From a virus (Duplodnaviria; Heunggongvirae; Uroviricota; Caudoviricetes), in IMG/VR virus record IMGVR_UViG_2547132077_000001, positions 1 through 38,217 of that record: 38,217 nt of DNA; one strand, given 5' to 3'. Made by a program: the position numbers and the translations under genes. This document shows, in pieces, positions 1 to 31,231 of the stretch (positions are counted from its first letter, which is position 1; the number at the start of each line of letters is the position of its first letter). A model generated the notes under the pieces. The model did not search any database, was not told the origin of the DNA, and was given only the letters and a program-made list of their open reading frames with translations.

Positions 1-290
1 GGTGGAGTGATACACCTTAACTATCGAATAGCACAAAGTCTTGCAATCCAGTGCAAAGCTTTGTTTGTCTCAGTTTTGTCTCATCAACCACAGCAAGTCA
101 TAGATCGATTAAGGCTTGGATGATAGACTTCATGCTTTTGATTACTGAGTTGCTTCATGCAGTCATTAATTGCGCCTTGCACATGCTACCTATGTGTCTA
201 TTCTAGGTGTTTACAATCATGCACAGCATCCTCAGCATTACAATTTCACCCAAATAACTTAACATGTGTTATACATTATGAGGAGCTTTA

Positions 291-1302
291 ATGAGCGAGC
301 GAAATAATTCATTTGATATAATTAGACATATCGCCGCCTACATGGTTTTATTTTCTCATCACTTCAGGTTATCTGGTGATCATGAGCCTTGTTTTTCTTC
401 AATGGGATAGTTATGGTGCGGTCGCAGTTGCAATTTTCTTTTGTTTATCTGGTTTCTTAATGCCAAAAAGTTTTAATTCATCTGGTTCGTTTATCGAGTT
501 CATGAGGAAAAGGTGTCTGCGTATATTTCCTGCATTATTTGTATGCTCTGTTGTTATGTATTTATTTGTCGCAGTAGAATTTAACTCCAATAATAGTTAC
601 GCATATTTATTTTCTTCCCAGCCATACTTAAATATCATAAGAAATACTGTTTTCCTGCAGAGTTATGTGGATGGAGTGTTTTCTGATTACTTTTACCCTC
701 ATGTTATTAATGGAAGCCTTTGGACGCTGCCTATAGAATTTTCATGCTATCTAATAATTGGCCTTGCGCTCTCTATATCGTTCACATGGGTCGGGCCTGC
801 TTTATTATTAGTTACATGCATACTTTCCACAATAATTTTCAACTTCTATCCTGAAAATTACACATATTTTAGTGTGCCTTTTAAATCATTATCATTATTT
901 GGCATGCCATTCTTTTTTGGTGCTTTATTGTCAATGACTACTGAGTCATGGTTGAAGTATAAAAAGCAAGTGTTAATTACTGCCTTATTGTTGCTTATTG
1001 CCGTGACTGGTAAGCCGGAAATACAAATTGTAGCGCCACTATGTTTGTCGGTTATAGTTATTGTTCTTGGCCTAACCATTAAAGACAGGGTTATAAACGG
1101 AAGGATTGATATATCTTATGGTTTGTATATATACGCATTCCCAGTACAACAGATTATTATAAATAATATAACTAATAAATTCATCCCATCCATAGCTCTT
1201 AGTCTTTTTGCAACTACATTACTGGCGACTGTTTCTTATTATTATATCGAAAAGCCGTTCTTAAGAAGAAAGAGAAAAGAAATTATAGTAGCTGAAGGTT
1301 AG
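291..1302 (+). pseudogene. oac: Acyltransferase-3 family membrane protein (O-antigen acetyltransferase-like), split by a frameshift: N-terminus in frame 291..410, remainder in frame 376..1302
   Basis: ATG at 291 preceded by AGGAG (281-285) encodes MSERNNSFDIIRHIAAYMVLFSHHF, a typical acyltransferase-3 N-terminus, then hits a stop at 408-410. The 308-aa track ORF in the +1 frame carries the rest of the polytopic membrane protein (AVAVAIFFCLSGFL motif) but has only a GTG start. The switch maps near a T5 run at 391-395. The symbol is inferred from position next to the tailspike. Confidence 0.55.
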
Positions 1303-1313
1303 TGTTGTTTACT

Positions 1314-1338
1314 GGGGGGGGTATTGCCCCCTTTAATT
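1314..1338 (+). terminator. Intrinsic terminator downstream of the acyltransferase gene
   Basis: GGGGGGG-tattg-CCCCC hairpin followed by TTTAATTTA, directly after the stop at 1302. Confidence 0.5.
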
Positions 1339-1799
1339 TATACTTGTTCTTACAAAAATATTTATAATAAATGAGTGCCATATTTGATAATGTCTCATCA
1401 AATTATAAAGCATATCGCCATGCATTGCTATAATTATCACTAGTTGTTAGTATAGTAAAATACTCTTCGATCATGACATATATAAAATTACCATGATTAT
1501 CATATAAAAATTGCCAATCAAATAAAAAAGCTATTAAATACATGGGTATCTAGCTCATTCAGCACTGACATGATACTTTTAAAAATCACTGAAACATCCA
1601 TTTAAAGTGACATGTCTCCAGATGGATGAAAATATTTACGTCGTGTTTTTAACATGTTTCTATTAGTATAGAAATAAGATAGTTATAACATAAACTACGT
1701 GCAGGAATAGCGATTACATCATTAGATTTTTCGAAAAAATCAAGAAGATCTAATCTAACTATTCCCACATCATTTTTGTTCTTATTCTTCAGTTAGTTT

Positions 1800-3860
1800 C
1801 TATGGGGTTATATAATCATAATCCGACTTCATCCTTTCAGTTTCAGCGTAGCTAAAAGTATTAGCCGCTCCGCACAGGCCAAAGCGACCTCTGTTCATGC
1901 GATGCCCTGTGACAAAAATATTAGTAGAGTATGGTGTTGTGGCTCCGATCTCTACAACTATACATGATTTAGTATTTTCAACCCCTGAAACTCCAACCGT
2001 AAAGGTCATTTCCTTCCACGAGCCTCCACCTACTAATGTTTTTGAAAGTAGTGTAGTTCTTGCTCCATTGTCATTTGCTACATATATGTGCACTAAAAAT
2101 GTTAGTTCAACATCAGCGTTAAACAAAGCCTGGACTGTCACTGCCTCACCATTCACCAAGTCGGCTCGTGGATGTTCGAATATAATCGATGTCGTTGCAC
2201 CAGCATCACTAAGAACAGATGCAATATAACGACTCATTCTCAATGCATTGTTTGGAATCCCTGCACCACTCCTAGTAAACACTGTATTAGATGTTGATCT
2301 TGCAAACCATCCAGGAGCCACAGCAGTTGATGAGTTGGGAGGAATACTTACTGTGCTGTTCTCTATATAAATAATGTCACCATTCAGAGCTGGTATATTT
2401 GCATTGTATTTATCAATAACAGAAACATGGTTAGATGTTAACGGAAGAAGCGGCATATTTTCAGCGACAATCCTTCCGGCAACAATCTTTTGATATGGCA
2501 AATCGTTAATTGATATTATTGGCTGAATAAAACCTGACCCTGGAATATTTGAAATAAATACCTTGTCAACCTCCAAATAGTTCATTATCACATCATCATT
2601 CCCAGCAACAATTATTCTGTTTGAGTTTATGCCATGTAAATTAGCATAAACATCATTTATAGTGATGTCAGTCAGTATCTGCTGCGATGTCGTTTCTGAA
2701 TCGCCAATTTGTACGACTTGTTGGTGTCCAAATGCCATCTCGCAATAAAGTCCATCAACTGAAGAAAACGTTGATGGATATCCAAAAATAACGCATGTTT
2801 TTGCATTCTGTGCGGAGTTGTCTTTTATTCTCGTTGCGACAGCAGATGTATATGACATAATGCCAGTACCGACAGCGCTACCACCCTGCCATGCACATCT
2901 ATTAAATGCAATAAAAAGCCTACTATTTCCTGAATATCTATCTGTTGTGTTACCGCCATCATCAATTGCCTTGACAAAATTATTGGCGTGATCGTTATAT
3001 TCCATGTATGTATTATTTATAATATGTGGCCACCAATTTTGTGCTTTAAAATTAACTACCCACTCGTTGCTATCTTCAGGATTGATAACACGACATTTCT
3101 CTACTGTTGCCATATGAGATGTCCACGGCTCAAATTCAACAAGCTTTGCCGTGCCACCATCCATCATTACATTTCTAATTTCATAGCTGTCTTGAGAAAA
3201 AAATGCTGATCGCTGATCTATACCATCCATGCCCATAGAAAATATTGGTCCAATGTCACTATTTATTGGATCGCATACAAACTGAAAATCAACATGCGTT
3301 GGAGTTTTAAACGTATATCTGCCAAGTTGAAAACCATCTTCATGAATCGGGTTCCAGCGCTTATACCCTGAATATCCTTCTGTAGGTGGTGGATTTGGCC
3401 TTTCATCCAAACTTTGGATTAGTTCAAACTCATGTTCCAAGCTTCTTAGCGAATCGCTTACAGTTCCTGCGCCATCTCCAATATATGTCGAACCTTCGTT
3501 CCCTGTCAGTAAAACTTTGAACTGATCCGGGTCATACTTCAGCACATTCGGAAAATAAAACTGCTGCGCCCCATACGCATCATAAACAGCCATGGAATGG
3601 CCTTGCACAGTTACGAACTTGGCAATCTGTCCGTTATATACCGGATATCCGGCAGCGTTAATGATGATTGGTTGCGATACAGGAACATGAGAGCCGTCTT
3701 CGTTCTCCACATAAACCTGAATCTGGTTTTCAGGGTTTACCGGGTCAGTGTCAATTTTACCGATATAAATTTTGCCATTGGCTACGGCTTTAAAAGAACG
3801 AGCCATAGTGAAGAGTTGCGAAGGCATCGATACGATCACATTGGCTGTAATGTCTGTCAT
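1800..3860 (-). CDS. Tailspike protein: P22/Sf6-type N-terminal head-binding domain fused to a divergent receptor-binding domain
   Basis: First ~115 aa ([46 protein letters not shown]...VLKYDPDQ) match the conserved head-binding domain of P22-like tailspikes as I recall them. The remaining ~570 aa I do not recognise. Position at the end of the virion block next to ant is as in P22. Confidence 0.9.
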
Positions 3861-3918
3861 TTAATTTGCTCCAGATACAAGGAATCGCCGCAGCGTAGCT
3901 ACGGTGAATTTTGGGCAT

Positions 3919-3942
3919 AAAAAAACCCAGCCGAAGCTGGGT
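3919..3942 (-). terminator. Intrinsic terminator between ant and the tailspike gene
   Basis: On the minus strand: ACCCAGC-ttcg-GCTGGGT followed by TTTTTTTA. Confidence 0.7.
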
Positions 3943-3960
3943 CGTTGCGTTGGTTATCTG

Positions 3961-4839
3961 TCAGTAGTTATGTACTGAAGGAGGCAATTCTTTATTCTTA
4001 AGTCTCATCCATGCGGAAAGATTCGTTGGTCCGTCTGGCTCATTAATATCAACATCTCGTGTGTGGTTTATTAAAACGTCTCTCGCCATTCCGATAACAT
4101 ACGAGAATTCATGACCGTAGTCGTAGCATCTGCCGGAATAGTTCGATTGAATTTGTTTTAGCGCCGGATACAGTTCGCGGAATAATGCCTGTGAGCGGTT
4201 GGCATAATCCCATAACCATACAAGGCTGTTTGCTTCTTTTGCAGAAAGCTCGTTGGTTTTCTTCTCTTGTTTACCAATGAACTCACCTTCAAGCACTACC
4301 CTGTGGATGTACTCTACGGCCAGCGGGATTTGTTCAATTGAAAGTTCATCAATGCTGTCAATACCAAAACGCTGATGAACCATATTGTATGCATCGTCAT
4401 AGCGAAGTCCTTTCTTTCCTACCAGCATGTTTACTGCATCGCGTAGCGGTGTTCTTTCCTCAACAGTGGTTTTCTTTCCTTTTACATACTCGCCATGTTT
4501 GCGAATTGAAGGCAGAACTTCTGCTGTTACCCACTTGCGGAATTTGTGCGGGACTGAACCTTTATTGACTGCATCGCGGCAGCGCAGAACCAATGTATAC
4601 ATACCTGATTCGCTCACAATGCTTAGATTCTGCTCACCACCAAGGGTGTAACTTAAAGTTACTCCCTTTTCATCGTCATCAAGTGCAGTAAGCGCCTTGC
4701 GTGAGTTAGTCAAATCTAAAGCATCACAAACATCTTTAGCTACAAACCACGGCTCACCGCACTTGTTGATGACGCGGATTTCACTGTCGCCGAATTTGAA
4801 GATGGTGAAATCGTTTTGTGCCTTTGCTATACTTTTCAT
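3961..4839 (-). CDS. ant: Antirepressor Ant (BRO-N/KilA-N type N-terminal domain)
   Basis: 292 aa, N-terminal [16 protein letters not shown] motif typical of phage antirepressors; sits immediately downstream of arc as in the P22 immI region. Confidence 0.85.
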
Positions 4840-4907
4840 GTCAATATTTCCTAATCCGATTTGTTGATGCCGAAGCCCTGACTGTTACAGCAGTTGGGGC
4901 TTCAACT

Positions 4908-5069
4908 TTACGCACCAATGCGCCCTTCCTTCTTAAAGCTTTCCATTACTCGCTGATAAATCTCAGAATTAACAGACCGACCATTTTCTTCCGCCACCTT
5001 GCGTACCAAATCCAATACTTCTTTAGGCCACCGCAAATTGAACTGTGGCATTTTGCTCATTCCTTTCAT
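4908..5069 (-). CDS. arc: Arc repressor (ribbon-helix-helix)
   Basis: Internal Met of the track ORF gives MKGMSKMPQFNLRWPKEVLDLVRKVAEENGRSVNSEIYQRVMESFKKEGRIGA, 53 aa, essentially the P22 Arc sequence as recalled. RBS GAGGTG upstream. The extra N-terminal residues in the track ORF are read-through of the operator. Confidence 0.95.
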   Translation of the reverse strand: MKGMSKMPQFNLRWPKEVLDLVRKVAEENGRSVNSEIYQRVMESFKKEGRIGA

Positions 5070-5085
5070 GTTCACCTCACAATAT

Positions 5086-5102
5086 AGGTCCACGGTGGAC
5101 CT
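5086..5102. promoter_or_regulatory. Mnt operator (17-bp palindrome AGGTCCACGGTGGACCT) within the Pant region
   Basis: Perfect palindrome seen directly, matching the P22 Mnt operator as recalled. Confidence 0.85.
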
Positions 5103-5111
5103 ATTGAGAAT

Positions 5112-5132
5112 ATAGTAGAGTGCTTCTATCAT
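5112..5132. promoter_or_regulatory. Arc operator (21 bp, ATAGTAGAGTGCTTCTATCAT)
   Basis: Sequence matches the P22 arc operator as recalled (reverse complement ATGATAGAAGCACTCTACTAT), between arc and mnt. Confidence 0.85.
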
Positions 5133-5159
5133 GTCAATACACTAACTTGGAGTGATGGC

Positions 5160-5408
5160 ATGGCTAGAGATGATCCGCACTTTAACTTCCGTATGCCTTT
5201 GGAAGTAAGAGAAAAATTGAAATTAAGAGCCGAGGCTAACGGAAGGTCAATGAACTCTGAGTTATTACAAATCGTTCAGGATGCACTATCAAAACCATCA
5301 CCGATTACAGGATATCGCGACGAAGCTGAACGCTTGGCTGATCAGCAGGCTGAGCAGTTCAAGGCTATAGTGTTTGAGACACTTAAAAGATTTATGAAAA
5401 GGATTTGA
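5160..5408 (+). CDS. mnt: Mnt repressor (maintenance of lysogeny; represses Pant)
   Basis: 82 aa, MARDDPHFNFRMPLEVREKLKLRAEANGRSMNSELLQIVQDALSKPSP... matches P22 Mnt as recalled; divergent from arc. Confidence 0.95.
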   Translation: MARDDPHFNFRMPLEVREKLKLRAEANGRSMNSELLQIVQDALSKPSPITGYRDEAERLADQQAEQFKAIVFETLKRFMKRI

Positions 5409-5409
5409 A

Positions 5410-5745
5410 ATGAGATTTCTATCACTGTTCTTGTTAGCAGTTGTCTCTTCTTCCAGTGCTGAGCTGCGCGAGCTTCAAACGGGTAATGACCTTCTTTACA
5501 ACATTCAACAAGGTAAAAAGGGTGATGATTTTTCATCGCTTTACATTACTGGATATTTGCGCGGAGTAACTGACTCATTGATACTAATTGGTTCTCTATG
5601 TCCTCCTGATGGCGTTGACATGTATCAATACACCGATATCGTTGAGAAATATCTAAACAAAAACCCAGAATCAAGAAATGAGAGTGCAGTTATACTAACC
5701 GCCCTAGCAGTAGGAAAAACATTTCCGTGCAAAAAGAATCAATAA
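5410..5745 (+). CDS. Small secreted protein of unknown function (signal peptide, two Cys in mature part), translationally coupled to mnt
   Basis: ATG at 5410 lies 1 nt after the mnt stop. N-terminus MRFLSLFLLAVVSSSSA is a signal peptide. Occupies the slot between mnt and the ejection-protein genes where P22 carries sieA-type exclusion genes. Confidence 0.7.
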   Translation: MRFLSLFLLAVVSSSSAELRELQTGNDLLYNIQQGKKGDDFSSLYITGYLRGVTDSLILIGSLCPPDGVDMYQYTDIVEKYLNKNPESRNESAVILTALAVGKTFPCKKNQ

Positions 5746-5760
5746 CAATAAGGGCTTAAA

Positions 5761-6150
5761 ATGAAATTGATTATAGCAATGGCTTTCCTTGTCTTCTCGT
5801 TTTCTGTCTCAGCAGAGTGCTGGGTCGTTGGAGATATGCACGGAATAAGCTATTCAGAACGAAATAATTTTCAACCGGAAGAAGATGGTTTTAGTGGAAC
5901 ATTCATCATTAAGACAAACGGTGAAGATGCCAGTATCACATATTCTGGGACGGATGCGGGCGGCATGGCTTACAAAGCATTGTCTAAAAACTCCATCATT
6001 GGAATCGGCGCGAATGGCGAAACTCAACGAGTTATCGACTCATGGGTAATACATCCTAATGGAACAGTTTTAATGTCGAAAACCATTTCTGGTTATGGGA
6101 ATATGGATTCAACCAAAGCTTTTGTTGGAAAAGTAAAAAGAAAATGTTAA
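5761..6150 (+). CDS. Small secreted protein, paralog A (mature form starts ECW, ends with Cys)
   Basis: Signal peptide MKLIIAMAFLVFSFSVSA, then ECWVVGDMHG; C-terminus TKAFVGKVKRKC. Clear paralog of the ORF at 30827..31231. RBS AAGGG upstream. Confidence 0.7.
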   Translation: MKLIIAMAFLVFSFSVSAECWVVGDMHGISYSERNNFQPEEDGFSGTFIIKTNGEDASITYSGTDAGGMAYKALSKNSIIGIGANGETQRVIDSWVIHPNGTVLMSKTISGYGNMDSTKAFVGKVKRKC

Positions 6151-6174
6151 CGATTGAATCCAATTCCCCATACG

Positions 6175-8016
6175 TTACTGCTGTGTTGCCTCAGTAGCAA
6201 GCAGCGGCCTGATGGCATTTGCAGCGTTACTCAACGCTCTTTCATAGGCTGGCGTTCCAGCTTTAGTGTTTGCCAGACGTAAGAGAGCATTCCTTGCTGC
6301 TTTGGACTCATACAAACGCATCATTGCACCAAAGCCAGCCTCAAGCCCCATTGATACACCAAGAGTCGCAGTTGCGCCAATCGTCCTTATCCTGTTGGCT
6401 TGTGATTGCCCCGTCTGAGTTACTACATTTGCGGTGTCTGACCTTGCTGTTTGCTGTAGAACTTCATGAAGAGCATCAAGCTCTTTCATGTGCTTTCCAG
6501 AAAAAATAGTGTTGTAAATTTCACCGCCTGACTGAGATTTCAGCTTATTAACTTCAGTGATGAACTTGGCTGGAGAGTCACCGGCCTTTTCCGCTATTTT
6601 GCTGACGTAAGCTGCACGCATAGCATCTTTCCCTTTATCATCCAGGGCGCTCCATATTCGTTTCACGTCAGATGGTTTTCTGCTTAATACAACGGTATTT
6701 ATAAGTTCAGGACTGGCTTCACTGCTTGCCTTGTTGAGCTTGTTAGCAATGTTTTTATTAAGCACCTTATTATAAACGTTTGCATAATCAGAATTTGCTT
6801 TAAGGTATTTTGCTGCGTCTGATGCACCGAGGTTTTTAGCAACTGCGTTACGAAGGTCTTTTGACATTGCATTCTCTACCATATTGGTAGCTGCTTTTGC
6901 CTGGTTGGGGAAGACCATAGCATCTCCCTGAACATTAGATCTAAATGCTGTTCTGTGCTGACGCAAGAGATCAAACGTAACATCCAAATCAGTTGCAGGG
7001 TTTGCTAATTCTTCACGTAGGTTACGCAAGGATGTAAGCAGGCTTTGATTGGCAGACGTCCCAAGCCGTTCCTGTCTTGCGATCGCTGTATTCAGAGCAT
7101 TCATGGTATTTGTGGTATCAACTGCGGCATTACCCATTTTATTGGTGACGTCATTGATAACAGCGCCAGCGGCATCCTTCCGCCCCCTTAACGTGGTGGT
7201 AAGAGATTTCACCACATCATCAGGGTTGTACTCACCAAAACGGTCAAAATAATTACTTACCAGCTTACTACGCGTTGCATATTGCTCCGCTCGCTTTGAG
7301 CCTGTCCCGAGCAAAGCCCCCTCGGCATCCTGAGTTAGGCCGCGAGTGAAAGCATTTTTCGGCGGGATAACATCAGATGTCATTGGTGTCACGCCCATCG
7401 ATTCTGATGTGGCAATTTTCTTCGCCACTTCTGGCGCAATATCACCTTTTATAGCCGTTATTCCACGCCCTATTCCCTTTGCTGCTGCGGAAAGAACACC
7501 CTGAGTGGCAAGGTTAACTCCGGCATTTTTAGCTGCATTTTGTGCGAAATCGCCTTTCTGATTTGCGGCCTCTGCCAGTGATCCAATAGCCATGCTTCCT
7601 GCCGTTCCAACTCCTGGAACTAAATACCCACCAATTGTTTCACCGGCTTGCGCGTAGGGGTCTGTCGGTCTGTCTACTGGACGATAAACATCATCCAAAA
7701 CCTTGGGTCCACCAAGCCCCTGACTGATTGCATTAATCAGACTTGCGCCGCCCTGCAATACGTCAAATGGTATGTTTACCAGACCACGACCAGCCTGTTC
7801 TGCAATTTGCCCTGCACTTTGACCACCAGTGAGCCAATCGCCAGCTTGTTGCATCAATGATGGTTCTTCCCGTGTTGGTGCATTATTGGCCTGATTAACT
7901 GTTTGTTGCTGAACAGCCTGACCAGCAAAATACTCATCAATGGCGGTGCCAATATCTTCGGTGCTCGTACCATCAGGAAAGGTAAATGTCTTACCGTTTG
8001 CAGTTACTTTCATCAT
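6175..8016 (-). CDS. Ejection (internal virion) protein, P22 gp16-like
   Basis: 613 aa, N-terminus [15 protein letters not shown]; last gene of the gp7-gp20-gp16 ejection trio by synteny. Confidence 0.85.
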
Positions 8017-9428
8017 TCCACCGTAAATTGAATGCCTGATTTTGAGGTATATGATCCAACCTGATTCCGTGGTTCTCCTGAAGGTGTCGAATCTTGTGCT
8101 GGCGCTGCGTCAGTATTCATTGACATATACCGCTTAACGGCACTCCCCAATGATTCACCTTTTTTAACATCCAACCCCAATATCTGACCGCCATTACGCG
8201 ATTGTCCAGGGTTGCCATTCGCGCTCATCCACTCGGCTTTAAACTCATTAAACTGCGCGTTTCGTCGCTCAAGGTTTGCCATTGCATCAAGCCATCTTGC
8301 GACCGTCTCAGGGTTATCCATGTCAGTTGGCGCACCCTGTCGAACGATCTCAACGTCTTTATCCGTTGCTGGGCCGGGAGGTAGGAATTTAAGAACCTGA
8401 CTGTTAACAAGGGCATTTTGGCGAATGCGCAAATCACGCAATGTTGTATCGCTTCCGGTAAGTTTTGCGAACATGTTCTGTGCGTTACCGAACAAACCTG
8501 TCGTTGGTTTTTCTGCTCTGAACTGTTGAGCAAGAGCACTCATAGAATTGGCTGAGTTTGATGATGCTGTAGCATTGTTTACAGCCGTCTCGATGCCTTT
8601 TTCCATGTTTACCGACAGCTTAGGTGCTTCGCTAATCAACTGCTGAGCCTTTTCCTGCGCTTGCTGCATCTTAAACCCGAACTCTTGCTGATCCAGAGCC
8701 AAGCGTTGTGCTGCGATATTGTGCCCAGTCATTGCTGACTGATAGGAAAGGTTTTGCCCTCTCGCCTGAAGTGCTTCACCAGCCTGATTGCTGCGGATTG
8801 TCTCTGCCAGCCTGCCTCGGTCAATCTCACGACCAGCCATCTTGTCCTGAACAGCAAACGCCTTTTCTGGTCCAAGCGCACCGAGAGACATAGTAGTCAG
8901 CATGTGTGATAGCTGCTCTGGATTCTGGATACCTGTCTGAATCATCCAGTCAGCATTAGCACCAACGCGATTTAACCTGTCCTTGTTGTCAGTAATGAAT
9001 TTACTGTAGGCTTCCGGTCCCTGAGAAAGAGCGACGTTAGCCCTCATGGCTAAATCGCCCATATCGTTGCGTTGCTGATCATTAAGACCGGAAAACGCCT
9101 GTTGTGCCTGTGCAACAAACGCTGGATTTTCCTGGGCAAACTTAAATAGTCCCGATGGATCACCAGAAGCCCATGCATCAGCGTGAACCTTATTGAACGC
9201 ACTAATAGCTTTCTGTTGCTGTTCCTGATTGTAAATATCAGCAACTCCAGCCAGACCACGTAACGCGGTCAGGCCAACGTTATTTGCACCTGAGCGAGCC
9301 AGTTCATTGTTTTCGCGGATCAGACCAAGCGTTGCGTTAATGTCGCTTGCCTTTGGCGCATTCTCATTTTGCGTACCGATGCCAGCCAGAAAACCACCAG
9401 AATTAATACCCTGTCGCCACGTAGCCAT
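8013..9428 (-). CDS. Ejection protein, P22 gp20-like
   Basis: 471 aa; synteny between gp7-like and gp16-like; 4-nt overlap with the downstream gene. Confidence 0.85.
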
Positions 9429-9438
9429 TGATTACCCC

Positions 9439-10134
9439 TTAATAAAGCAGTGAACCAAGCAGACCGATACCAGCACCGATACCAGCACCCCACGGAGTTG
9501 ATGAACCAATTAATTTCGCAAGTCCAGCCCCAGCAATAGCACCAGACGCACCTCCGCCAATAGCAGATTGCATTGCTGATGGTCTGTTGGCATTTGCCGC
9601 TGCAAGAGCCGCACTTTGCTGCGAAATCTGACTCATGTTGTTGGCATATGTCTGCCCGGCGTTTGCCTGACCTTGCAGTGCGCCAAGACCAATATTTGCC
9701 AGATTCTGGTAGTTGTTCATCTGACCAGATAGCCATTGCTGACCAAGCGTTGGTGCGATTGTTGCTAACTGATTACCGGTTGCAGTGGAACCCAATCCAC
9801 CTGTTGCTTCCGCTGCCGCCAGACTCTGATAGCGAGCCTGACCAGCAAGATCTTTGTACTGCTGAGAGTTGTAATACTGGTTAAGTGCCTGACCTTGCCC
9901 TTCCAGAGACGATAAGTTCTCGAGGCTGCCGACATACTTATCAGCCAGAGGAGTAAACGGCTTCAGGTTGTTCATGATGGTGTTGAACTGCTGATTTTGC
10001 AGGTCTGCGGCATACTTCTGAGATTCTGCTGCATACTTTGCGCTTTTATCAGAGCTGCCACCTTTCCCGCCTTTTTCAGGGCAATAAGGTTCCTCGCCGC
10101 GCAGTTTTCTGCCCAGCTTAAATGCATATAACAT
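9439..10134 (-). CDS. Ejection protein, P22 gp7-like
   Basis: 231 aa with Gly/Ala/Gln-rich low-complexity C-terminal part; synteny. Confidence 0.8.
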   Translation of the reverse strand: MLYAFKLGRKLRGEEPYCPEKGGKGGSSDKSAKYAAESQKYAADLQNQQFNTIMNNLKPFTPLADKYVGSLENLSSLEGQGQALNQYYNSQQYKDLAGQARYQSLAAAEATGGLGSTATGNQLATIAPTLGQQWLSGQMNNYQNLANIGLGALQGQANAGQTYANNMSQISQQSAALAAANANRPSAMQSAIGGGASGAIAGAGLAKLIGSSTPWGAGIGAGIGLLGSLLY

Positions 10135-10136
10135 GG

Positions 10137-10595
10137 CTATCTCCCGTGATTCAGGAAGTCGATTAGTTCTTCGCGTGTGGCGCTGTAAAACGTTACGTTA
10201 TCCACGCCTTTGAAGTATTTCTTGATGGTTCCTACACGCTTAAGGCCAATCATTGCGCAGTAAATCTGCCCGTGGCGGAATTTGCGTGCGGCGAACGATG
10301 TGACGCACTGAACGGTGGTGTTAGTCAGAATGTATCGCCAGAACGCCAGCCCGATTTCCTTGCTGAAGCCGCGAATCTCTGGCAGGTACATGGCGTGGCA
10401 ATCGAATGTCAGCGGCTGAATCTCCTGATAGTAAACAATGCCGCCGAACTGCCCGTGCACGTTCACCTCAAAGTAACGGCAATCAGGTTTGTAGTCGTAT
10501 CCATCACCGTTGTTGCTCCCGGCGATAATGTCGGGGTGATTTCCCACGGCTTCTATCAGGTCGATGTTTCGCGTTGGTTTGAACTGAATCATCAC
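10137..10595 (-). CDS. P22 gp14-like virion assembly protein
   Basis: 152 aa; position between tail needle and gp7-like genes, 4-nt overlap with tail needle gene. Assigned by synteny only. Confidence 0.65.
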
Positions 10596-11440
10596 TGCTC
10601 CGCGATTATCTTGATGATTGTGGCAGTAAACGCCGCACCATTTGACTGAATGGTTAACGTACTGCCATTTGTGGCAAGAAAGCCGTCTTTATCCACGCTG
10701 AAGAACGTAGCTAACAGGATGTTGTCGGTTGTTGTCGCCGAGTTGCGACTGCTTACCAGTGTGTCAGGAACAGAACCGGAAAATGTTAGCTGCATTGACC
10801 TGTTGGCGGTTCCGCTGGGCCAAGTCCCGACAATCGACAGCTTGAAGAACAAGGTTTTGTTCTCGTTGAACACAACCATCTTGTTGTTAACAGTGTCGAA
10901 GAATGGTGCCAACGTCCCGGATGACGGCGTGAGCGTTTTCAGCAGGCTAACAAGGTTGGTCGGCGCTGTCGGGATGGTTACAGATACGCCAGAGTAAACA
11001 ACCTCCGACTTCTTGCGAGTAGTGGCATACTCCAGAGCATCGATGCGCGTTTCATGGTCTGAAACCTGCGATTCCAGCGACTGAACTCTGGTATCAAGCG
11101 ACGCAATATCGCTTTCATTCTGAGCGATTCGCGTTTCATGTTCCTGAAGAGTTGATTCTGCCTGGCTGATTCGCTCCTCATGATTAACAAGCGTTGCTTC
11201 CGCAGCAGAAATTCGCTGCTCATGGTCAGCGAGAATCACATCCTGCTCATCGTTCCTGACCTGTGCATCATAAGCGCCCTGTCCGGCCTCGTTGGCTTTG
11301 TTAGCCACGTTACCAACATCAGTGCCCTGTGCGATAACGTAAAGCAGATACGACTGCGAGAAGATATTGCGTGGAAGGACTGATGTGTCGAGCCGTGTAG
11401 CCTGAATGATTACTGGCACATTGAGATTCGAATCCGCCAT
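10592..11440 (-). CDS. Tail needle (P22 gp26-like) with extended C-terminal knob domain
   Basis: N-terminus [43 protein letters not shown] matches the P22 gp26 N-terminus as recalled; heptad coiled-coil middle; 282 aa is longer than P22 gp26, consistent with a knob. Confidence 0.85.
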
Positions 11441-12858
11441 TACTCAATCCTTATCTGGCAGCCAGACAGAGTGACAGGTGACTTCGTGATAACGCGCAAT
11501 TTGAAGCCAATGTTTTTCCTGATGCGCCCTACTCGCTTCCACAAAACGCGTTTGTCGTAAACGAACGGTTCATTCTGCTCAATCATCTTTTCACGCCCGT
11601 AATTTATGCCGTCAGTGGTTGCAGAGAGAAAAAGGCGGTCAGCGTACTGCGCAACGCCAGTGGATGATTCCACCTCCAGATCGAAGCATCTGGCGTTATC
11701 CGCTTTGAACAACGGAGTAAACAGCAGGTGTTCCTGCTGCTTGTCGTACTGGCTGCTGATATCGAACTGCAATTTCCCGGTCACGGATTCCAGCTTATCG
11801 CCGCACGTTATCTGATTGCCTTCGTAAATGAAATCGATAGCGCGGTACACATCGTCATACAGGCCTGTTTTCAGCACACACCATTGCGGACCATTGGCAC
11901 TTGAAGATGCGTCGTACACGAGTACATGGCGCGGAAGGTGGATAATCAGCAGCTCATGAGCATCAAACCGCAGCGATTCCATCACACCATCAGCCAGTTC
12001 ATCAGCAGTGTAGGAGCGGAGAATTTTCTCAATGCTCGCGCTGGCGATTGGTGACACCTGACCGGAGCCGATGATATATACAGACGGTGCACCTGTTGCC
12101 GGATTGCTGATGAAAGCATAGGAATCAGCAAACGGCGTTTTGCAGTAAGTCCCGGCGATGCCTTTTTGCACCATCAGTGATGGCTGCGCGACATACAAAG
12201 CAGCACCAACGGTGGTTGCGCCAGTCAGGGAGAAATATTCAATAGTCGATGAACCAAAGCAGACGATGAAGTCTCGCCATGTTCCGATGCCGAGGATACC
12301 GTCCGGCTGCGATTCTGCGCGATATTGTGCGCTGTAACGGTCAGGATGCGATTCGTCTTCAAGGTCAGTGATAAACCATGAATCAGAGCCGTCTTTTGAC
12401 CACGCATAACGCCCACGTAAGCGCGTAATGTCACGAACAGAACCTAACTCATACTGAGTGAATCCGCTGTCTGTAGGCCAGTTTGAGACGGTTTTAACCG
12501 TACCATCATAGCGATACTCGACCAGTTGACCATTAACGCCTACCGCCTGTGATGTTCGACCATGCGCCATTGATACGCGACCACTTCCGGCAACATTACC
12601 GACTTCGCTTTCTCCTTTGTACAGCTTGCCACCACACACGCGATAAACAGCATTCTGCGCCATGTTGTACTCGACGCCGCGCGATACACCGTTCACATCA
12701 GAGCGTTTGGCAATGCCCGGGAATGAGCGAAGATATCCGCTGCTGTTGAGGATTTCTTTGGGTGTAGCCAGCATATTCACTGGCAGATAGTCGATATAGT
12801 CGGCGTTTCGAAAGTCTTTGCCGACACCTTTCATAAGCGGAAGTTGCTGAATCGGCAT
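11440..12858 (-). CDS. Tail hub / portal-closure protein, P22 gp10-like
   Basis: 472 aa; synteny between gp4-like and tail needle. Confidence 0.8.

Positions 12859-29878: not shown

Positions 29879-31231
<1,353 letters not shown>

Follow-up and report, generated by a model that had tools for sequence, protein, structure and literature searches.

The tailspike gene and its head-binding domain

We analysed a DNA stretch of 38,217 nucleotides (nt) (the whole stretch is hereafter the window; IMG/VR virus record IMGVR_UViG_2547132077_000001), which is one whole-genome-shotgun contig of Escherichia fergusonii ECD227 placed in scaffold CM001142, and we focus on the tailspike gene located near its beginning. 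Its product has the same sequence as EGC95630.1 / WP_000129897.1, a deposited protein of this strain, and the whole-protein copies found in E. coli differ from it by 3-15 substitutions (98-99.5% at the amino acid (aa) level), none of them being truncated. At >=98% identity the protein is present in ~70 assemblies of E. coli and E. fergusonii (WP_000129897.1, WP_244564864.1, WP_250204646.1, WP_249941286.1 and others). The gene and the parts of its product are:

1800..3860, minus strand: tailspike gene, 686 aa, a single intact open reading frame (ORF) from the ORF list, translation ending ...SDYDYITP
3517..3860, minus strand: head-binding (virion anchor) domain, aa 1-115, which is also the right-hand flank of the swapped block (PF09008 match and identity to phages N7 and Sf6)
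3336..3515, minus strand: linker or neck, aa 116-175, with a predicted helix at aa ~134-149 (model residues 19-34); predicted local distance difference test score (pLDDT) <50 for model residues 1-60
2391..3335, minus strand: predicted right-handed parallel beta-helix of regular short strands, aa ~176-490, the putative glycan-binding or catalytic domain
1881..2363, minus strand: predicted C-terminal beta-sandwich, aa ~500-660, resembling carbohydrate-binding module (CBM) families CBM4, CBM11 and CBM22 (Foldseek)
1803..1880, minus strand: C-terminal tail, aa 661-686, with a conserved G-L-C motif (661-663) and a short predicted helix (model and conservation)

The N-terminal part is readily recognised. 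Residues 1-113 match the full-length Pfam profile PF09008 (Head_binding, E 4e-67), the sole Pfam domain recognised in the protein, and the head-binding part is 99.1% identical (aa) to that of Escherichia phage N7 (aa 1-115) and 92% to that of Sf6. Sequence matches in the Protein Data Bank (PDB), i.e., Sf6 gp14 (7sg7, E 1e-65) and P22 (2vky/2xc1), all stop at aa 115-117. Homology shows aa 1-115 to be the part by which the trimer is attached to the tail of the virion, as it is for P22 and Sf6. For the C-terminal 571 aa, nothing was found in Pfam at E<=1, and a phmmer search of the protein against all PDB sequences (E<=1) recovered no solved tailspike catalytic domain, those of P22, Sf6 and HK620 included. 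A profile of 26 relatives, searched against all PDB chains, matched through its N-terminal anchor columns alone. NCBIfam holds no model for the tailspike protein, and a literature search by protein accession gave no match. The sequence-only reading of this DNA had assigned the first ~115 aa to the P22/Sf6 head-binding domain and had described the next ~570 aa as unlike the catalytic domains of P22, Sf6 and HK620; both observations are correct, because the PDB matches end where the anchor ends and the family profile reaches the PDB by the anchor alone.

The tailspikes of P22 (gp9), Sf6 (gp14) and HK620 (gp9) carry the same PF09008 anchor (92% aa identity to Sf6 and 88% to HK620 over the first ~115-128 aa), their genes share the position after the ant/immI region, and they follow a common plan of anchor, neck and right-handed beta-helix, whereas their catalytic families have no detectable sequence homology to the C-terminal ~550 aa of the window protein. 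The gene analysed here occupies the position of P22 gene 9. Upstream, on the same strand, lie an antirepressor gene and then the arc/mnt region, and farther upstream homologues of gp16, gp20, gp7, an Sf6-type needle, gp10, gp4 and the coat protein, the domains recognised among these neighbours being P22_CoatProtein, P22_Tail-4, Phage_stabilise, Phage_tail_NK, P22_gp7, Inj_translocase, Phage_P22_gp16, Arc/Mnt and Bro-N plus P22_AR_C (the last two in the antirepressor). As is characteristic of a P22-like tailspike, the gene stands at the end of a P22-type virion module, beyond the ejection-protein genes and immI (mnt/arc/ant). The features directly upstream of its start codon are:

3961..4839, minus strand: antirepressor gene (domain match)
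3924..3943, minus strand: terminator-like hairpin between the antirepressor gene and the tailspike start codon (consensus scan alone)

Relatives and predicted fold of the C-terminal module

A word-indexed search of 5.8 billion proteins returned 34 relatives of the C-terminal module, and an exhaustive HMMER scan of 1.84 billion cluster representatives (50% clustering) found 25 representatives at E<=1e-3. Judged by these matches, the family is real but small and the module is not an orphan. Its members occur in Enterobacter ludwigii, E. cloacae, Buttiauxella, E. coli, metagenomic viral contigs, phages of Vibrio lentus and Salmonella phage Det7. In proteins with other N-termini the homology begins at aa 114-124 of the window tailspike, and at least four kinds of anchor were seen on the module, i.e., Head_binding, Tail_spike_N (PF18668), Phage_T7_tail (PF03906) and the ~500-aa Ackermannviridae anchor of Det7 gp206.

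Of the sequenced phages, Det7 with this gp206 matches best (33.5% identity over 540 aa, E 5e-82 in tblastn), and the module also matches PHROG 36390, "tail spike" (E 3e-88, profile positions 530-1039 of 1048). Det7 gp206, a protein of 1048 aa in the TSP4 position (TSP, tailspike protein), is homologous over the whole receptor module (aa 136-675 of the window protein against 509-1039); it differs in its ~500-aa Ackermannviridae N-terminus and in belonging to a lytic myovirus, and at 33% identity its specificity may differ as well. The link has been in print since 2015, when the C-terminal domains of three Det7 tailspikes were reported to be 33-45% identical to those of epsilon15 and of prophages including that of ECD227, CM001142 (Casjens et al., PMC4424284), a range that fits the value measured here for gp206. 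Surveys of Ackermannviridae tailspikes from 2021 and 2024 list Det7 receptors for TSP2 and TSP3 alone (PMC8432352; PMC11721090). No characterised tailspike of high identity was found, the best phage match being one without a receptor in these surveys, and the earlier view that the specificity of the module could not be assigned holds, with the qualification that a small family of homologues exists and that the connection between Det7 and ECD227 had already been published.

An AlphaFold2 monomer model of aa 116-686, built from an alignment of 26 sequences, reached a mean pLDDT of 84.4 and a predicted template modelling score (pTM) of 0.82. In this model aa 116-175 plausibly form a trimeric neck, and the receptor part shows the right-handed parallel beta-helix that characterises P22-like tailspikes. 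The best whole-length Foldseek matches were the Klebsiella K2-2 TSP (8iq9), CBA120 TSP4 (5w6h), Kp7 gp52 and KP32gp38 (7-11% identity, template modelling (TM) scores 0.3-0.38), and the matches as a group comprise phage tailspike depolymerases together with beta-helix glycosidases and lyases; the fold class is the same as that of known tailspike depolymerases, at about 10-12% identity. These four proteins have the same succession of a beta-helix and a C-terminal beta-sandwich. They differ in that the architecture is shared and they are not one family, their substrates being K2/K21 capsules and the O78 O-antigen. The sandwich alone matched CBM4, CBM11 and CBM22 structures with Foldseek E-values of ~1e-5 and TM scores (target) of 0.5-0.68; Pfam CBM_4_9 was detected below threshold in 6 of the 26 relatives (best E 0.028) and not in the window protein. 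Furthermore, an independent BFVD model of a 916-aa viral protein superposes on the module at TM 0.78. The suggestion that the module is depolymerase-like was therefore borne out at the level of predicted structure, in which a right-handed beta-helix and a beta-sandwich find their best matches among tailspike depolymerases, glycosidases and lyases. On this model, the module is new in sequence and conventional in fold.

Across 31 members, down to 27% identity, the invariant or nearly invariant residues of the beta-helix are D224, Q274-N-W-W-P278, K297, D300, D301, N312-S-R314, Y372 and E374, followed by D387, Y405, N407, H409, D432, D453 and D483, and the conserved residues of the sandwich are R541, T575, Q577, E617 and R654. 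The conserved acidic residues fall on successive rungs of the helix, one to two rungs apart. Such a spacing of carboxylates resembles the active-site grooves of tailspike glycosidases, and we infer from it that they may cluster in space; D300/D301, E374, D387 and D432 are candidate catalytic or substrate-binding residues.

The beta-helix might also be that of a polysaccharide lyase, or of a non-catalytic, lectin-like binder, and not that of a glycoside hydrolase, which we regard as unlikely, albeit with some weight left to it. Carboxylates that stay invariant across members only 27-35% identical to each other (D224, D300, D301, E374, D387, D432) are more typical of an active site than of a helix with a structural role alone, and the characterised O-antigen tailspikes of P22-like phages and of Ackermannviridae considered in this comparison are glycosidases, endorhamnosidases among them. 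More generally, such tailspikes are hydrolases. Either version would alter the chemistry of the module and not its biological role.

The swapped block and the O-antigen modification genes

Among sequenced phages, N7 (MH717096) comes closest to the tailspike end of the window (window 1-12000), with ~96% nt identity over the aligned parts (43% of the stretch). N7 shares the gene order int, small conversion-region gene, tailspike and ant. It differs in its tailspike, which has 709 aa and a different receptor domain, and in a hypothetical gene of 107 aa that stands where the window has an acyltransferase, and everything from the integrase end to codon 115 of the tailspike is unrelated between the two. 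In blastn, DNA homology to N7 and to phage Sf101 ends at window position 3517 (codon 115) and restarts at window <=144; therefore, the block 145-3516 holds both the receptor-binding part and the acyltransferase. Its features and left-hand flank are:

145..3516, no strand assigned: block replaced relative to phage N7, comprising the acyltransferase, an AT-rich spacer and the receptor-binding module, ~3.4 kb (blastn breakpoints)
291..1302, plus strand: O-antigen-type acyltransferase gene, Acyl_transf_3 (PF01757, E 6e-17), convergent with the tailspike gene, repaired product about 337 aa
1313..1335, plus strand: terminator-like G8/C5 hairpin just past the acyltransferase stop codon (consensus scan alone)
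1..144, plus strand: last 10 nt of an IntS-type integrase gene and a conserved intergenic spacer, the left-hand flank of the swapped block (E. coli genome matches)

The block also stands out in its GC content, which is 39% in the receptor module, 34% in the acyltransferase and 29% in the spacer, against 47% in the rest of the window. A total of 1121 E. coli genome records match the tailspike gene in the head-binding segment only, and the block between the conserved flanks was found in none of 5426 complete E. coli genomes. We infer that such a variable block between two widely conserved flanks is the trace expected from cassette exchange by homologous recombination. The module appears to have arrived within a ~3.4-kb AT-rich cassette that also bears an O-antigen-type acyltransferase, and the flanks (the integrase-end intergenic region and the head-binding coding region) would permit the exchange of the whole unit of receptor recognition and modification by homologous recombination. 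The word "swapped", used for the module in the sequence-only reading, is apt, given the break in DNA homology to N7 and Sf101 and the presence of the C-terminal module on three other anchor types. Receptor-module exchange after the head-binding domain, as well as conversion genes behind the tailspike gene, have already been described in Lederbergviruses (PMC10408124).

The acyltransferase belongs to a family (Acyl_transf_3) that includes phage O-antigen acetylases. In the assembled window a one-base frameshift at about 387-396, within CCTTGTTTTT, interrupts it, so that the first 33 codons (from 291) are off-frame relative to 376..1302; the PF01757 match accordingly lacks the first ~40 profile positions, and the missing residues are encoded upstream in another frame. 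The repaired 337-aa product aligns from end to end, at 56% identity, with the intact gene that follows a homologous tailspike on an IMG/VR contig (L005). The frameshift may be a sequencing error or mark a pseudogene. Phage Sf101 has the same layout of tailspike, convergent acyltransferase and integrase end, its Oac being marginally similar to the window acyltransferase (31% identity over 62 aa), which unlike it is frameshifted in the assembly. In Sf6, too, a convergent O-acetyltransferase gene lies behind the tailspike gene and beside int.

All seven temperate-phage contexts that we read have an O-antigen modification function directly downstream of the tailspike gene, in convergent orientation. 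Four of them, namely the window, E. ludwigii (L010), E. coli (L011) and the IMG/VR contig L005, have an Acyl_transf_3 gene at this place, and E. cloacae (L013/L014) has a set of gtrA/gtrB/gtrC-like genes; two further IMG/VR contigs (L004 and L006) have ORF sizes and order as in the gtr-like cluster of L013, the gtr call being made by sizes only. The receptor module of L005 is 49% and its acyltransferase 56% identical to those of the window, and the L010 and L011 acyltransferases show <35% identity to that of the window in partial alignments. Strict co-inheritance of the receptor module and the acyltransferase, which we considered, was rejected, as it holds for L005, is remote for L010/L011 and is replaced by gtr-type genes in three relatives. 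By these comparisons, the functional pairing of the module with O-antigen modification is the sole general element.

Window positions 1-144 are 92-94% identical (nt) to a segment found in 732 E. coli genomes, where it adjoins tRNA-Arg (argW). In the annotation of E. coli MB30 the match spans the intS stop and the intS-gtrA spacer, beside tRNA-Arg, and this type of spacer precedes O-antigen modification genes in argW-integrated prophages. This suggests a prophage integrated at argW, with a conversion gene that would be driven from the 1-144 spacer; no tRNA is present within the window. Assignment of window 1-123 to the C-terminal 40 codons of the integrase was rejected, since the MB30 annotation shows just the last 10 nt of intS. 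A location of the prophage inside the host O-antigen locus was likewise rejected. In scaffold CM001142 a distance of 150 bp separates the tailspike and acyltransferase genes from GT2, GNAT, gnd, ugd, wzz and his genes, but the junction is a 100-N gap directly before the first base of the window, and this adjacency is an artefact of assembly ordering. The 100-N scaffold gap lies at L002 13862-13960; the other scaffold side abuts a truncated lambda-type J gene, an adjacency that is probably of the same kind.

Several other genes of the prophage were noted. The tail needle (10592-11440, minus strand) has an Sf6-type knob (Phage_tail_NK, E 5e-117), a knob described in 2013 as confined to phages that infect E. 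coli, E. fergusonii or Shigella (PMC3741392). Positions 5410-5745 (plus strand), which lie in immI with the gp16 homologue on one side and mnt/arc on the other, encode a 111-aa protein with a signal-peptide-like N-terminus and an above-threshold match to Pfam Rap1a (E 1e-14), a family of type VI secretion immunity proteins; this gene could be a prophage moron that shields the lysogen from attack by the type VI secretion system. Two paralogous small secreted proteins (5761-6150 and 30755-31231, both plus strand; 31% identity, E 7e-15) both carry "ECW(V/I)V" after a signal peptide, as well as a Cys in C-terminal position, and belong to no Pfam family. The first is located beside the Rap1a-like gene and the second just downstream of the cI-type repressor gene.

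Proposed receptor and significance

We consider, with a probability of roughly 75%, that this is the tailspike gene of a P22-like (Lederbergvirus-type) prophage in E. fergusonii ECD227, and that the C-terminal part of its product is an exchangeable receptor-binding module with the O-antigen as the most probable target. By analogy with all characterised beta-helix tailspikes, aa 116-686 would bind a polysaccharide of the host surface and cleave it endolytically, allowing the virion to reach the outer membrane step by step. Because O-antigen modification genes directly follow the tailspike in all the temperate contexts read, this polysaccharide is in all probability the O-antigen.

The tail of the ECD227 O-antigen cluster is 100% identical in five complete E. 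coli genomes, whose clusters contain rmlBDAC, a 3,4-ketoisomerase, an aminotransferase, a GNAT, wzx and several glycosyltransferases. Their gene content implies a polysaccharide with rhamnose and a 3-acetamido-3,6-dideoxyhexose. In ECD227 the cluster tail is scaffolded beside the contig and need not lie on the same DNA. The tailspike itself is absent from all five genomes, and the strain names carry no serotype. One further observation concerns E. coli W2-5 (NZ_CP032989.1, 1907485-1937023), which has the galF-gnd cluster tail as in ECD227, with rfbB annotated as frameshifted, and also a complete O9-family polymannose cluster (wzm/wzt/wbdA) beyond wzzB, i.e., two adjacent O-antigen loci.

A different target, namely a capsular (K-antigen) or other exopolysaccharide, has a precedent among P22-like phages in CUS-3, whose tailspike is a K1 endosialidase and shows that a Head_binding anchor can bear a capsule-specific enzyme; moreover, the best full-length structural matches of the module (K2-2 TSP 8iq9, Kp7 gp52, KP32gp38) are Klebsiella capsule depolymerases. 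At ~10% identity and TM 0.3-0.38, however, these matches speak for architecture only. Each temperate relative examined has O-antigen modification genes straight after its tailspike, gtrABC-type clusters included, gtr clusters act on O-antigen repeat units, and the other characterised Det7 tailspikes act on lipopolysaccharide. We thus regard a capsular target as improbable. That the gene is a non-functional relic of a defective prophage, with a decayed C-terminus, is very improbable: the adjacent acyltransferase is frameshifted, a truncated lambda-type J gene adjoins it in the scaffold and the contig has no integrase body, but the scaffold junction at the first base of the window is an N-gap and the adjacencies are probably not real, the full P22-type virion gene set is present, and the ORF is intact, with 686 aa against 685-686 aa in homologues, has E. 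coli copies that differ by few substitutions and show no truncation, and can be aligned over its whole length with relatives at only 33% identity, all invariant residues being kept.

Some points weigh against an O-antigen-directed, exchangeable depolymerase as we propose it. The structure is a monomer prediction from 26 sequences, and the placement of the conserved carboxylates in one groove would follow from residue spacing. The acyltransferase is frameshifted in the ECD227 assembly. In addition, the downstream acyltransferases are mostly not orthologous, and joint inheritance is no general rule, because L005 alone resembles the window in this gene.

More tentatively, the module may represent an undescribed family of glycanases, without relatives in Pfam, in CAZy-type families or among PDB sequences, that recognises a rare O-antigen of Escherichia and Enterobacter, a possibility we hold to be doubtful at present. 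If true, the acyltransferase and the receptor module would form a portable "recognise-and-then-mask" cassette, swapped among the tails of podo-, sipho- and myoviruses, and knowledge of the specificity of the module would point towards the receptor of the homologous fourth tailspike of Det7.

Taken as the tailspike of a P22-like prophage, this gene is an ordinary one, with the familiar swapping of host-range modules, and not a new kind of system. The receptor modules of tailspikes set the serotypes that a phage infects and are used for host-range engineering and as diagnostic or decolonising depolymerases. The present one is rare, as both the complete E. coli genomes (0 of 5426) and the 25 family representatives among 1.84 billion proteins indicate, and it is common to the tailspike in the TSP4 position of Det7, a phage whose TSP1 and TSP4 are without an assigned receptor. 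Identification of its substrate would add one more pair of serotype and enzyme and leave the view of tailspikes unchanged, since for P22-like phages the exchange of modules at this boundary, just behind the head-binding domain, is textbook knowledge. The useful leads are the candidate catalytic residues, the boundaries of the cassette and the link to the Det7 tailspike.
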